Assembly: GCA_964016885.1 (NCBI GenBank)
Contig: OZ024755.1
Coordinates: 8,556,001-8,620,000, forward strand
Origin: Eledone cirrhosa
Taxonomy: Eukaryota
Length of the DNA: 64,000 nt
Direction: 5' to 3'
The notes below the pieces were generated by a model that was given only the letters and a program-made list of their open reading frames with translations, made no database searches and was not told the DNA's origin. Shown piece after piece: positions 6,561 through 63,911 of the stretch. Positions within the stretch are counted from its first letter, which is position 1; every line of letters starts with the position of its first letter. The translations under genes were made by a program, and so were the position numbers.

Positions 6561-6911
6561 TAGGAAAAAGTATGATCCCGACGGCAGAGCTCAAGGCTAT
6601 TTCTGGACTAAATTAGAATTTTTAGCCTGGTGAATAAATAGCCGAACTTGTCAAGGGGTACTTCCTTATATCGAATTGACAACTATATGGATTGATAACT
6701 ACAATCTCCCCATATAAGGAAGTACCCCTTGAGAAGTTCGGCTATTTATTCACCAGGCTAAAAATTCTAATTTAGTCCAGAAATAGCCGTCGAAACGGCT
6801 TGAGCTCTGCAGTCGGGGTCATACTTTTTTCCTATTTCCCACTCTACTACCCTAAGTATTGAGTACTCTGGTGCGTTATGGTCCATCTGGTTCCTTACCA
6901 TAATTCCTTTG

Positions 6912-6914
<3 letters not shown>
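6561..6914 (+). mobile_element. Family H1, longest copy, ~270-bp fold-back
   Basis: Arms 6561-~6670 and ~6712-6834 are near-perfect inverted repeats, followed by the H1 tail and (TA)n. Confidence 0.85.
6724..6819 (+). ncRNA. Complete but decayed type I hammerhead ribozyme
   Basis: Stem I ACCCC/GGGGT; core TTGAGAA (TTGACAA in the mirror arm, cf. CUGACGA); stem II CGGCTATTT/AAATAGCCG; GAAAC at 6792; stem III; GTC at 6812-6814. Confidence 0.65.
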
Positions 6915-6953
<39 letters not shown>

Positions 6954-7985
6954 TGATGGCCGAATGAATTAACTATGGAGATATAAAAGATGCAGAAGCG
7001 AAAACCAACCAAACAGTGAGTGTGTTCTGTTATTATTTCTGGCAATAGTATTACATATATTCCTCATATATATACACACACACATATAAATATTCATACA
7101 TATATATATATACACACACAAACACATCTCTCGAGGAGAAGGTCACTCTGATATAAAACCTGCGACCAGTTCTAATTTTGGGTAAATGTATTTGATGTTC
7201 AAAGACGGGTATTGGCCCCATGCAAAGCCTTTCCTCACTTCAAACACAGGCATCGCTTGATATATGATTTTTTTTCCGATGCATGGCATTGCTGGCCATA
7301 GGCAAGACCCTAGGACTAAAATGCCACGTCCATGGTGTTCATGGTTAAGTACCAAGCAATGGCATTACTCGAATCCGAATTGCAGCCATAATTATCATCA
7401 TGTACGTATGTATGTATGGGTGTATCTATTTAGGTATTAATGTACATATGGATGAATCGATATATGTATGTATATTATGTATGTGCCTATGTAAATCTAT
7501 CTTCCCATCTCTCCATCTTTAAATATAATATAGCCAATTCTATATACGCCTTGATCCACTTCCAATAAATTCACCATCTTTCCGCTGCTTAATATTATTT
7601 TTTCCATTCCTACAACTCCGTTGTATTGGTTAAAGTGAAGACATAAGGTTGACGATGACGATGGTAAGATGAAATATTGTTGCATGACTATCATAATGAA
7701 TGGTGCATGTTTCCTTCTACATCTGGACACGACACTATATTTTACATGCCTCACTTGACCAACCTCGTTGATATAAGCATCAGCGATTCACTCATAGAGA
7801 GAGATAAAACTAGAGAGAGAGGCGTGTATAGCTTGGGGCTGGCTGGCGAAACACATTAAATGTTGAGCTAAGGATGATTAATGAATATATATAGCTCTTG
7901 GAACCATTCATTAATACTATTATTAATATTTTCTCTCTCTCTCTCTCTCTATAGTATATATATAGTATATATGTATAGTAATAAT

Positions 7986-8172
7986 TATTTCTACTTTTGG
8001 TACAAGGCCAGCAATTATATCAGTGTATTACTGGTACTTTATTTTATCGACCCCGTAAGGATGAAAGGCAAAGTTAACCTCGGCGGGATTTGAACTCAGT
8101 CCGTAAAGGGACGTAACTGTGCTGCAAAGCATGGCACCCGACCCTCTACTGATACTGCCAATTCACCGCCTT
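7986..8172 (-). mobile_element. Full-length tRNA-derived SINE family A with 18-bp TSD
   Basis: B-box GAGTTCAAATCC on the minus strand; TSD TATATGTATAGTAATAAT at 7968-7985 and 8173-8190. Confidence 0.85.
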
Positions 8173-8199
8173 TATATGTATAGTAATAATAATTTTAAA

Positions 8200-34275: not shown

Positions 34276-36644
34276 ATACAGAGAGACAGGGCGGGAGAGA
34301 ATGTATGTGTGTAGGGTGGACAAATGGTTCTCCGTCATTTTCAATAAGTAGGGTCCCAGTTGTTCGATCAAAGGAAAATCCTTTTAATGGAATAAACGTG
34401 TAGGTGGCTGAGTATTTCATTAATGTTACTCTCAGCTAGATTCAGTGTCATACAGTATGGGCTAAGACTGGCCAATTGAATTATAGGTACGGGCAATCCC
34501 ATGGGCTTCCAAACAGTTTCCGCCCACCAAATATCCTACCATGATACTTAGCGGTATCGAACTCGGAAGATAATGATTACAAAGCGAACTGCTTCACCAT
34601 TCAGCAAAGCTGCATCTATACACGTAACACACACACGCCTACACACATTTATGTATGTGGATGTGCGTGTGTGTGAGTATAGACACACCAAAACTATAGA
34701 AACACCACCTCCAATCAGAGACAAACGTGGTAAGTTTCCACCAGGAGATGCAAGTGTTAGATAACATCAGGACTAGAAATATGAACATTAAGAGTTTCAT
34801 AGGTCCGAGATGAGGGTCGTAATTATTTTTACTTTTCACACATACGCACACTCACTCACTCACACACTCACCTGCAGTGTGGGAGGGAGAGGGAAGAGGT
34901 GAAAGGAAATGAGAGAAACGGACACACATACACTCTTTGTTATTAATAGTGATTATATACTTTGAGGTTTCTCCAAAGCTACCGGCTTTTCAACACTCTT
35001 CTGAAAAGGCAGTAGCTTTGGCGAAACAACCTCTAATGTTAAATATATACATATTCCGTTTTTGAATTAGTTTTGTAAGATTTCTCATCTGAAAACGTGT
35101 GTTGAAACAGATATTGTTATAGTGTGTGTGTGGGGTGGGGTGGGTGGGGCTGTGGACTACATCTGCACCAAATATTTCTTCCCTTTGTCATTTTGAAAAC
35201 CTTCCAATAAAAAAATAAAAACTTTCGTCTGATGATTAACTTCAAATAAATTGAATATTTATTTCTAGTCATTTTTTAGTATAGATTTCTCTCTTCTCCA
35301 TCGTGTAGTCTTGCGCTTGCATGCATATTTATGTGTGTGTCTATTTTTGTCGTCGCTAGAAAATATGTAAAAACTTTGACTATAATTTAAATACATACAT
35401 ACTATGACTACTTTCACTCTCGTATGATGACGATCATTAGAATGGATCCTCCGTCGATTTTGACGATGACTACTTCAGTTCCACTTGCACATATTGTCTC
35501 TACCAATAAGCCAAAGAACGATACTGGGTTACTATATTCGATACAAATAGCCGCAAAATTGTTTGTTAGATCACATACTAACACCTGAAAATAATATCAG
35601 AAAGATGTATAGTAAAATATAGTCCAGTATATGTGTAAATTTATCTGATGGTCATGGCTTGAACATCATTGGTCAAAACTCTGCTTAAACATGATACACT
35701 TGGAAAAGCAATATATAAACTTTATTCTTGCCGGACCAGTTCACATAGGGCGGAATCGTTTATTAATATATTGCACCCAGGTTCTGTCTAATTAATGTGA
35801 TTTGACAGCTAGGGCACAATACAACCATACAAGCGGATGGTGGTACATTATTTTGCAAGGACTGTAGCCATGAAATCTTTATTTCAGATGGCACAACAGA
35901 GCCAGCTGATGTGAGGTAGGAAACGATATAAAAACATAATTGACTATGGTCTGTGTTAATTGGCAGTGGCTTGTTAAACTATTTCTTTTTGGTACACATC
36001 AAACAGGATTTGACCAAAATTGTTACCATAAATTCCGACGGAGCTAATAAAGAGCCTCTTGTGTGCCTCACAGCCCACTAGAAGGAGCAGCCAAATATCC
36101 TTCAAAACACGCCTTCTCAGTTCATATCCTCCCGTCTCATAAAAATACATATTGGATAATATTGTCCTAGTCACAATGTTTAAATAAATGACAGGACGAT
36201 GAAAGCTAAAACCCCCTTTAATCATAAGTCAGCTTAACTTAACTAGACGTGACTTGGCTCTAAACAAGACCAACAGCAAAAATCTATACTCTGGGTCTTC
36301 AGATGTCCCTCACATGATTAAATCCTGAATTAAATCCATCTGAAACAGCCCCTGGTTTTATTTTTAAAAAGTGTTCCTTTAAATTCAAATTTTCCATTAA
36401 AGTTTAAGTAATAAATTTGTGTTGATATATTTCCAAACCCCAATTTATGATACAGTTAATTATTTTAACAAACGCATTGAGAATATTTAAACTTTGAAAG
36501 GTAGTCTCCCGAATGTAGATGAATACAATAATCTATAAATAATGGTTGAAAACAATCGGGTAAAGTACTTAAAAACTATTGGGAACATTTAAGATTTTAA
36601 ATAGTTGTATCCCAATGATCGCAACAACTGTCAATCACTATAAA

Positions 36645-36737
36645 TAATTGTTTCTACTTTTGGCACAAGGCCAGCAATTATTCCAGTGTATTACTGGTAC
36701 TTTATTTTATCGATCACGTAAGGATGAAAGGTAAAGT
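36645..36737 (-). mobile_element. SINE family A, 3' fragment
   Basis: TTGTTTCTACTTTTGGCACAAGGCCAGC..GGATGAAAGGTAAAG. Confidence 0.75.
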
Positions 36738-49445: not shown

Positions 49446-49468
49446 CTTATTATTATTGCCTGTTATAA

Positions 49469-49653
49469 GCGGTGGATTGGCAGTATCGGTAGAGGATCGG
49501 ACTCCATGCTTTGACGCATAGAGTTATGGCCCTTGTCCTTCTGAGTTCAAATCCCGCCGAGGTTAACTTTACCTTTCATCTTTACGGGGTCGATAACATA
49601 AAGTACCAGTAATGTACTGGTTAATTGCTGGCCTTATGCCAAAAGTAGAAACA
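49469..49653 (+). mobile_element. Full-length tRNA-derived SINE family A with 20-bp TSD
   Basis: A-box TGGCAGTATCGG at 49478; B-box GAGTTCAAATCC at 49543; TSD ATTATTATTGCCTGTTATAA at 49449-49468 and 49654-49673. Confidence 0.9.
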
Positions 49654-49674
49654 ATTATTATTGCCTGTTATAAT

Positions 49675-49880: not shown

Positions 49881-50257
49881 TTATTATTATTATTATTATT
49901 GTTGTTGTTGATGTTATAATTATTATTATATTGTGCCTTAATTAGAAACAATTATTATTATTATCATGAATTTTATATCTGTGTTATTGATATTATTAAA
50001 CTAGAAAATTTGTTCTAATGGATATCAAGCCCTTATCTGCAGCCTCTATCATCATCATCATCATCATTACTATTATAATTCAAAAACCATTATTATTATA
50101 GATATTATTTGTATTATTATTATAGTTATTGTTGTTGTTTTCCAGATGATAAGGGTTCATATATCAATGAACCAACAATCGATTTACAAGCGATTACGCT
50201 GTTGTATATAATTCATGATGGGCGAGTGAAAATGTGGGGTATTTTGACTCGACCCTC

Positions 50258-50365
50258 CCGTCGAGGTTAACTTTGCCTTTCATCCTTACTGGATCGATAA
50301 AATAAAGTACCAGTAATGCACTGGGTAAATGCTGGCCTTGTGCCAAAAAGTAGAAACAATTATTA
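50258..50365 (+). mobile_element. SINE family A, 3' part
   Basis: CGAGGTTAACTTTGCCTTTCATCC..GTACCAGTAATGCACTGGG. Confidence 0.75.
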
Positions 50366-51650: not shown

Positions 51651-51653
<3 letters not shown>

Positions 51654-51751
51654 CGAAGGAAATGTGGTACGGAACCAGATGGACCATAACGCACCAAAGT
51701 ACTCAATACTTAGGGGAGTAGAGTGAGTAATAGGAACGGGTCCTACCCCTT

Positions 51752-55874: not shown

Positions 55875-55976
55875 TTGCCTTTCATCCTTCCGGGGTCGAT
55901 AGAATAAAGTACCAGTAATGCACTGGGTAATTGCTGGCCTTGTGCCAAAAGTAGAAACAATTATTATTATTATTAT

Positions 55977-56030
<54 letters not shown>

Positions 56031-56145
56031 GAGTTCAAATCCCGCCGAGGTTGACTTTGCTTTCCATCCTTACGGGGTCGATAAAATAAAGTACCAGTAA
56101 TGCACTGGGTATTTGCTGGCCTCGTGCCTAAATTAGAAACAATTA
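55875..56145 (+). mobile_element. Two tandem SINE family A 3' parts separated by (ATT)n(TA)n
   Basis: 55875-55962 and 56028-56145 share GTACCAGTAATGCACTGGGTA. Confidence 0.8.
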
Positions 56146-58379: not shown

Positions 58380-58585
58380 GATTTCTAGTATAGGCACAAG
58401 GCCAGTAATTTTGGGGGAGGGGAAAGTCGATTAAATCGACCCCAGTGCGTGACTGGTGCTTTATTTTATCGACCCCGTAAGGATGAAAGGTAAAGTAATC
58501 TCGGCGGGATTTGAACTCAGACCATAAAGGGCCGTAACTCTTTGCTGCAAAGCATGGCCTCAGACCCTCTACCAATACTGCCAAT
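58380..58585 (-). mobile_element. Near-full SINE family A, long-tail variant
   Basis: GGCACAAGGCCAG..GTCGATTAAATCGACCCCAGT..GGCGGGATTTGAACTCAG. Confidence 0.85.
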
Positions 58586-58879: not shown

Positions 58880-59204
58880 TATATATATTGAAATTAAGTG
58901 AGAAAAAAACTCTAATTAAGCATTATATATATATGTTGGTTGGATGCATCCATAGGCGGTATGCCGCGAACTCTTGATCAATCGACGGTCCACGCAAACC
59001 GGATGATGGCAGATGATAGAAATTCTAAGGGTCGGAGTCCAACGGAAAGAGGATTTGCTTTGAAATCACTAGACGTACCTGAGGAACTTGCGAATCCACA
59101 AACAGAACGCACCTCGAGCTGTTCGCTGGAGAAACAATTCTAATACATAATAAATTGTGTTCCGATGCATCACTGATTTTTCGTTTTCCGTATTATATAT
59201 ATTT

Positions 59205-59517
59205 ATATTTCGTTTCTGAATTTGTTTAGCAAGATTCTTTATCTGAAATCGTGTGAACACACAGAAACAAAATGGCGTAGGACAGAACAAAGGAGAGGCA
59301 CAGAAACAAAGAAAATAATCCCCAGTCACTGAAGAGGTCACAGAGTGTGTGACGAAAGGACTATGACTATATATAAACAACTATCTGGTTGTGGAACCAA
59401 CCAACCAACCAGAAATTTATAAATTTATAAATTCGTAAATTTATAAATATATAATAAATTGAAGTGAAGCAACTGGTGCATGTGTTTCTTATTGGCAACA
59501 TGACCCTCCCAAAGTAT

Positions 59518-59525
<8 letters not shown>
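59205..59525 (+). mobile_element. Family H2 copy with its 3'-terminal ~50 bp inverted at the 5' side
   Basis: 59205-59255 is in the same orientation as 20773-20820, while 59256-59525 is the reverse complement of 20830-21090. Confidence 0.8.
59324..59368 (+). ncRNA. Minimal type I hammerhead ribozyme
   Basis: Stem I AGTCA/TGACT; CTGAAGA; stem II GTCACA/TGTGAC; GAAAG-GA-CTA cleavage triplet. Confidence 0.85.
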
Positions 59526-59552
<27 letters not shown>

Positions 59553-59558
<6 letters not shown>

Positions 59559-60417: not shown

Positions 60418-60420
<3 letters not shown>

Positions 60421-60538
60421 CGAAGTAGTTGTGTTAAGGAACCAGATGGACGATAACGCACCAGAGTACTCAATCCATTTCGACAGAAATAGCCATCGAA
60501 ACGGCTTAAGCTCTGCCAACGGGGTCATACATTTTTTC
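60418..60538 (-). mobile_element. Family H1 copy, internally deleted
   Basis: Reverse tail plus inverted arm carrying GAAACGGCTTAAGCTCTGCC-AAC-GGGGT (cleavage triplet mutated). Confidence 0.75.
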
Positions 60539-60559
60539 AGACATATATATAGTGTTATG

Positions 60560-61089
60560 CTTAGGGAGGGTCATGTTGCCAATAAGAAACACACGCACCA
60601 GTTGTTTCACTTCAATTTATTATAAATTAAATTTATAAATTTAGGAATTTATAAATTTCCGGTTGCTTGGTTGGTTCCACAACCAGACGATTGTTCATAT
60701 ATTGTCAATGTTCTTTCGTCACACATTCTGTGACCTCTTCAGTGACTGGGGATTCTTTTCTTTGTTTTTGTGCCTCTCCTTTGTTCTGTCCTAAGCCATC
60801 TTGTTTTTGTGTGTGTTGGGTGCTTAGTTTGCGCATGTGTTACATCCGAGTGTCAGTGTGTGTTTATATTTGTTTATTTATTTGTTTATCTACATGTTAC
60901 TGGTTGGTTGTTTGTTCTATGTGTGTGTGTGTTTTCATTTTGTCCTTAATTGTACGTTGTGATGTTAATTGAAGTGAAACAACTGGTGCGTGTGTTTCTT
61001 ATTGCCAGCATGACTCTCCCAAAGGATAACAATATCGGTTTCAACACACGTTTTCAGATAAAGAATCTTGCTAAACAAATTCAGAAACG

Positions 61090-61090
<1 letters not shown>
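60560..61090 (-). mobile_element. Family H2 copy (decayed hammerhead 60703-60747) with an inverted terminal segment at 60967-61090
   Basis: TCTTTCGTCACACATTCTGTGACCTCTTCAGTGACT; 60560-60618 is the mirror image of 60967-61022. Confidence 0.8.
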
Positions 61091-61154
<64 letters not shown>

Positions 61155-63723: not shown

Positions 63724-63911
63724 TAACAAAGAAGGTGTGGTAAGATACCACGTGGGCCATAACGCAACAGAGTACTCAATACTTAGGGTAGTAGAGTGGG
63801 TAATAGGAAAAGAGTCTGGACCCCTACGGCTGAGCTCCAGCCGTTTCGACAGTTAGATTTGAACAGCTGTCAAAACGGCCGGTGCTCAGATCTCGGGGTC
63901 CTGACCCTTTT

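Follow-up and report, generated by a model that had tools for sequence, protein, structure and literature searches.

The 64,000-nt window of the Eledone cirrhosa genome analysed here carries a minimal type I hammerhead motif which, in our judgement, is probably the terminal-repeat ribozyme of a high-copy Penelope-like element (PLE) present in truncated insertions, with cleavage that is likely to be slow and to need help, and with window copies that are likely to be decaying and to have no role for the host. It likely cuts RNA weakly, if at all, and its importance probably lies with the element and not with the genes of the host.

Three copies of the motif are found in the window:

59324..59368, + strand: hammerhead copy 1, minimal type I, with an additional G, loop 3 GA and triplet CUA, of the youngest subfamily
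59363..59364, + strand: predicted cleavage site, after A17 (hammerhead numbering), a position that is only A or U in 89/89 sampled copies
20992..21036, − strand: hammerhead copy 2, loop 3 AA, triplet CUA
60703..60747, − strand: hammerhead copy 3, U16.1 changed to A, predicted to be inactive as a substrate

Copy 1 reads, in order, AGUCA, CUGAAGA, G, GUCACA, GAGUG, UGUGAC, GAAA, GGACUA and UGACU. Helix I has 5 bp and helix II 6 bp including G10.1-C11.1, the C3-A9 box is followed by the one additional G with GAAA 3' of helix II, and helix III consists of AG/CU enclosing GA, with A17 of the CUA triplet at 59363. All of the parts that an earlier note had described at this site (a perfect stem I, CUGAAGA plus G, a 6-bp stem II, GAAA, a 2-bp stem III and CUA) were found, and the sequence also bore out that copy 2 is unlike copy 1 in loop 3 alone and that copy 3 has lost the triplet. 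Both copy 1 and copy 2 have the core C3UGANGA9, G12AAA15.1 and U16.1 H17 in type I order. In copy 3 this core is broken at U16.1, and since this position is U in 89/89 sampled copies, copy 3 is predicted to be inactive as a substrate; it further departs from copy 1 in loops 2 and 3, at position 17 and in the terminal base of helix I, all of which are common traits of its subfamily.

The motif in the window is real and above chance expectation. A structure descriptor returned two intact motifs (copies 1 and 2), while 200 locally Markov-resampled windows gave a mean of 0.005 relaxed matches and the strict motif in 0/200. An origin by chance or artefact would fit the weak folding z-scores (only -1.37 for copy 1) and the lack of an Rfam match: no Rfam hammerhead family matches 59200-59500 at E up to 10 in a covariance-model scan, and when the entire window was scanned, the matches listed (150/503) were all to miRNAs and driven by microsatellites. 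However, the empty null, the compensatory changes described below and the fixed position in a PLE pseudo-LTR have already refuted this explanation, which we regard as practically out of the question.

The evidence supports the motif being a PLE minimal type I hammerhead in the 3' pseudo-LTR (pLTR) of an EN+ Penelope-like element. The assignment to the PLE minimal hammerheads made in the earlier note was strengthened by tracing the element to an ORF with a reverse transcriptase (RT) and a GIY-YIG endonuclease. This ORF has RVT_1 and GIY-YIG matches, both under the Pfam cut-offs, together with DKSG and YVDD motifs, a CX4CxxC linker and, at the C terminus, a GIY-YIG with Cys/His, the RT preceding the endonuclease; a PDB sequence search with the ORF gave no match. 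The hammerhead lies in the pLTR in the same sense as the ORF, ~205-240 nt 3' of its stop codon and up to ~340 nt where a local repeat has expanded. Judged by motifs rather than by a tree with reference PLEs, the element appears to be of the Neptune/Nematis type and Neptune-like, with the Neptune traits of a CX2-5CxxC linker and microsatellite (TA)n targeting. The 256 nt around copy 1 are 92-97% identical to copies across the 3.0-Gb genome (best 40 of 649 candidates). Exact genome-wide searches found 3,550 matches to the GA-loop 34-mer and 12,634 copies of the AA-loop forms, and the upstream and 3' anchors were counted 5,961 and 26,074 times, with reversed controls at 0 throughout.

The hallmarks found for the element comprise pLTRs, partial tandems, inverted 5'-truncated copies and a tail, and copies are often paired head to head, inverted. 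Among 30 near-full-length loci the upstream pLTR contains the ribozyme in 18, starts 3' of it in 10, and no such pLTR is present in 2; the ribozyme is also found in the upstream pLTR of tandem copies, and the genomic tandems have a unit spacing of ~4.1 kb and are coding. The first 100 listed 3'-anchored copies have two 3' termini separated by ~60 nt, with the short end in 52, the tailed end in 47 and another in 1, and nearly all continue into (TA)n. The 5' coding region of the element spans ~350 aa and includes a low-complexity stretch rich in Asn/Thr/His (locus L035, 3780-4826, − strand; locus L047, from ~1533); at L035 it is not in frame with the RT region, which may reflect decay, an intron or the presence of a second ORF. 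Several retroelement ORFs near family copies (L035 6488-7267, +; L038 4933-6342, −; L037/L040 1-2760, −) we take to be unrelated to the family, two presumably belonging to another Penelope-type family and one to a LINE-like element with EN and RT.

In the window, where the repeat search was dominated by (TA)n, the following pieces of the family were mapped, with positions in the element given relative to the cut:

59257..59525, + strand: 5'-truncated 3' pLTR with copy 1, -106 to +161 from the cut, with the short 3' end, then (TA)n
59194..59255, − strand: inverted 3' tail piece of copy 1's element family, about +171 to +221, head to head with copy 1
59526..59553, no strand: (TA)n target tract adjoining copy 1 on its 3' side
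20771..21094, − strand: 5'-truncated pLTR and tail with copy 2, -97 to +221, flanked by TA-rich tracts
60549..60966, − strand: 5'-truncated element end with copy 3, -260 to +161, inverted relative to copy 1 and ~1 kb off
60967..61095, + strand: tailed piece paired with copy 3 in inverted orientation, +92 to +221, then (TA)n
35051..35121, − strand: lone tail fragment of the PLE family, 86% identity, without ribozyme

Other repeats share the window. A second dispersed, (TA)n-associated family occurs at 1151-1490, 6775-6912, 30184-30270, 51653-51749, 60420-60536 and 63726-63850; it includes a pair of copies tail to tail around (TA)n (1233-1490), and one of its copies adjoins the target tract of copy 3. 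A third, SINE-like family with 82-93% identity between copies lies at 7979-8176, 28029-28180, 29222-29334, 36643-36737, 49464-49660, 50256-50365, 55875-56141 and 58382-58585. Tandem repeats make up about 40% of the window, and long simple-repeat arrays at 12001-14000 and 18001-28000 show a GC skew of +0.75, and a GC content of 10-17% with skew to -0.95.

The kind of motif described here is already published. The PLE minimal hammerheads of Cervera and de la Pena (2014; PMC4209133), in the parts of that paper available to us, likewise lie in pLTRs and have a 5-bp helix I without loop 1, a long helix II with G10.1-C11.1, a nucleotide between 9 and 10.1 and a vestigial helix III, and they also occur mainly as single truncated copies and as opposite-strand pairs. 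In Fig. S3 of the same paper the Marsupenaeus japonicus row has the G15.2-C16.2 pair and CUA triplet seen here; PMC1636495 contains nothing on the CUA triplet. The additional nucleotide differs, being G here but H in the published >80% consensus, with G in 1/56 rows of Fig. S3 (Nasonia). Loop 3 differs as well, being GA or AA here, whereas by our own count the rows whose loop has 2 nt show self-complementarity in 9/9 cases, although the loop-less row Latimeria 3 is likewise non-palindromic. The Neptune/Nematis EN+ PLEs, as far as the accessible text of Craig et al. (2021; PMC8557442) describes them, share the RT, the CX2-5CxxC linker and the C-terminal GIY-YIG, as well as the (TA)n bias, partial tandems, inverted 5'-truncated copies, optional tail and canonical hammerhead; the tail is ~60 nt here compared with 30-40 nt in those elements. 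Non-LTR retrozymes, according to the portions available of PMC7229834 and bioRxiv 10.64898/2026.07.22.740005, also carry a type I hammerhead and have a proposed PLE ancestry, but they are short non-coding tandem units with mostly canonical hammerheads, while the ribozymes described here sit in the truncated ends of an element that is coding and has a ~4.1 kb unit. A non-LTR retrozyme was ruled out since the window holds no same-strand tandem and the genomic tandems are long and coding. No description of this hammerhead family was found in the octopus hammerhead ribozyme literature, in a search that left most subscription papers outside, and PMC13282606 makes no mention of a ribozyme or hammerhead.

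Conservation was assessed in 89 of 90 copies taken from the first 100 on the list of matches to an anchor that does not overlap the ribozyme, one being dropped for want of a 3' flank. The 45-mer of copy 1 is the commonest haplotype (29/89), so the additional G is a family trait, and decay was ruled out as its origin. The earlier description of copy 1 as near-intact was thus right about the motif but too modest. The unpaired nucleotide between 9 and 10.1 is present in 88/89 copies and is G, positions 15.2 and 16.2 are complementary in 89/89, and loop 3 is AA (48) or GA (41), neither of them Watson-Crick palindromic. Variants found in at least 3 copies fall on two positions of loop 2, on loop 3, on position 17 (A/U) and on the terminal helix I pair, with none at the 11 catalytic or the 12 helix II positions. 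At the lineage level, with classes set beforehand, 1/35 constrained positions were variable vs 4/10 free positions (p=0.006), and conservation of the core over the loops, which the earlier note had set as a test, was thereby upheld at this level. Against the flanks (23/197) the constrained positions with the classes set beforehand gave no better than p=0.09, and p=0.023 came after the terminal pair was reassigned to 'free'. Private substitutions showed no depletion in the core (5/973 cells vs 119/17,062 in the flanks, p=0.69). Since private mutations are equally frequent in core and flanks, we infer that selection acts on the transposing progenitor elements and that inserted copies drift. Contigs from three runs of unknown kind had identical variable positions, and one contig carried the AA/U variant in organism B, again from a run of unknown kind; both are uninformative on expression.

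In folding predictions the 45-mer of copy 1 alone favours a misfold (0.6), with a helix I probability of 0.31, and in its local context this probability is 0.02-0.31. The GA loop is predicted to give rise to a competing misfold. A monomer helix III of 2 bp with a 2-nt closing loop is nominal, and the 2-nt loop 3 requires a partner strand. The segments 59257-59525 and 60549-60814, containing copies 1 and 3, form a ~270-nt inverted repeat with 89% identity and 1 kb between the arms. In read-through of the + strand, a duplex of copy 1 with the inverted copy 3 is predicted over 245/269 nt, ribozyme included, at -386 kcal/mol; if transcribed, the repeat is predicted to yield a long dsRNA and could possibly be a substrate for A-to-I editing.

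The earlier note had also suggested that copy 1, if intronic, could cut host pre-mRNA. Its intact core, a GA junction that is the most dimer-friendly variant of the family (-1.7 kcal/mol in the model) and thousands of near-identical copies as partners in trans would allow for this. Yet no exon was detected, with 0/66 stop-free frames (chosen from frames of at least 70 aa, so that short exons may have escaped) reaching the Pfam cut-off, and the window holds no same-strand partner for copy 1. The predicted burial of the ribozyme in the duplex with copy 3, the low helix I probability in local context and the lack of core depletion among inserted copies also argue against it. The suggestion was therefore not sustained: copy 1 probably does not cut host RNA, and an active intronic ribozyme acting on host pre-mRNA is a very improbable explanation of the motif.

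The genomic 5' ends bear on how the ribozyme would be used by the element. Among 100 unselected copies the cut is spanned by 75, none (0/100) starts at +1 to +3, and starts at +1 to +25 number 4, with 4.9 expected. A pile-up of 5' ends just 3' of the cut in 4/30 near-full-length loci (+5 to +23) was not reproduced in these copies. Published minimal PLE hammerheads have the additional nucleotide and the long helix II; their monomers are inactive and their dimers cut weakly, as the available parts of PMC4209133 report. In the accessible text on the Anolis Poseidon PAc (Frangieh et al. 2024, PMC11167929), cutting by the PLE hammerhead requires the element protein and the ribozyme is dispensable for insertion in vitro. 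PAc also resembles the present element in its two 3' ends defining a tail, its AT-rich targets, unprocessed RNA as the main template and a cut site without ends, but its hammerhead overlaps the ORF start, while here the cut lies ~260 nt 5' of the point where the next unit has its first ATG. From these two papers, as far as we could consult them, together with the genomic 5' ends, we infer a slow, assisted and strand-swapped cleavage. Two hammerheads in tandem element transcripts would exchange strands to form helix III, in which a 2x2 purine loop would be flanked by the A15.1-U16.1 and G-C pairs, and the protein of the element would probably assist the cut after position 17. Cleavage would be a slow side process of the element life cycle. 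Reverse transcription would take place mostly on uncut RNA, and copies would thus keep the cut site intact.

It is also conceivable, though we consider it unlikely, that the fold is selected in the element but no longer for cutting, with helix II and the core serving in the pLTR as a signal for protein binding or for RNA folding. Such a role would suit the additional G, since a G at this position is strongly harmful in the CChMVd hammerhead (review PMC3705267, in the part available), and also the non-palindromic loop 3 of the majority lineage, the inner helix I of just 2 bp in sister families and the absence of 5' ends at the cut; the accessible parts of PMC4209133 leave roles other than cleavage open. 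However, 11/11 catalytic positions are without shared variants, position 17 is A, U or C but never G in the sampled rows, and N7 varies freely (A, U, C), as a catalytic core predicts. A further arrangement, a non-circularly permuted hammerhead whose cleavage strand is supplied by another part of the element, would account for the non-palindromic loop 3. It was ruled out, and is highly improbable, since no alternative strand lies nearby and there is conservation of U16.1 and of the helix I 3' strand at the motif itself. One near-full-length copy has a single candidate strand, which falls in the ORF 1.7 kb upstream, and a sister locus has 4 candidates at other offsets.

Returning to slow, strand-swapped cleavage, relatives of the family offer variants of the junction through which dimers would form. 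A looser search pattern exposed sister PLE families (7,375 matches vs 13 in the control) with about 55-70% protein identity to copy 1's family. They keep the core, with U as the additional nucleotide, two helix II pairs altered on both sides, an inner helix I of only 2 bp and the junctions GAACUU or GAUUUA. In 12 hand-picked, related sequences helix II is 97% paired, and the combination of a short helix I with a long helix II containing G10.1-C11.1 is supported by covariation; in this set the double-change cells exceed 500/500 shuffles but the pair number does not (194/500). One group of sister copies (L282-L285) is arranged in tandem, the units being near-identical and spaced 4,147 nt apart. 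That the sister variant arose by a deletion and has a tandem GA was ruled out, since the helix I register gives GAUUUA. This register also means that the 24,174 matches to a loop-less pattern (230 in the control) are in part misread sister copies. Several more families of hammerheads also match this pattern, and in many of them the junction is palindromic and has no loop (CG, UA).

The AGAUUU junction is found in 5,781 copies of a sister lineage. Modelled homodimer helix energies are +2.4 kcal/mol for AGAACU, -1.7 for AGGACU and +0.2 for AGAUUU, with -5.0 and -8.3 kcal/mol for true palindromes. In a tree of 30 endonuclease-region copies, rooted at the midpoint with the AA-loop sisters left out, all 17 copies with the GA loop fall into a single derived clade (100/96) nested among AA-loop copies. 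Since AGAACU is common to copy 1's family and the sisters, it is likely to be the ancestral junction. The two apparent shifts to better pairing hint at selection for dimers. A tentative and rather doubtful reading is that in this PLE clade the dimeric helix III is formed with purine-purine tandem mismatches rather than with a Watson-Crick palindrome, and that two lineages, starting from the weak AGAACU, independently gained better-dimerising junctions; these would be a sheared tandem GA (AGGACU, in the youngest clade including copy 1) and a wobble palindrome (AGAUUU). AGAACU dimerises poorly yet has >12,000 exact copies, which fits uneasily with a required dimer; the weak junction has been amplified most, and the change to GA also brings the misfold. 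No paper on tandem sheared GA in a dimeric hammerhead helix III was found in a search that most subscription journals lay outside. If true, this reading would provide natural evidence for selection on dimer cleavage in the PLE life cycle, together with an allelic series.

What is described here is one more family of the motif published in 2014, and as such it carries little weight, the genome having tens of thousands of such motifs. The genomic 5' ends accord with the in vitro finding of uncut RNA as template, as given in the available part of PMC11167929. The family is of modest use as test material for the role of the PLE hammerhead, since it offers natural variants in the junction (AA, GA, AUU) and in the additional nucleotide (G, U, A), along with near-intact ORFs.
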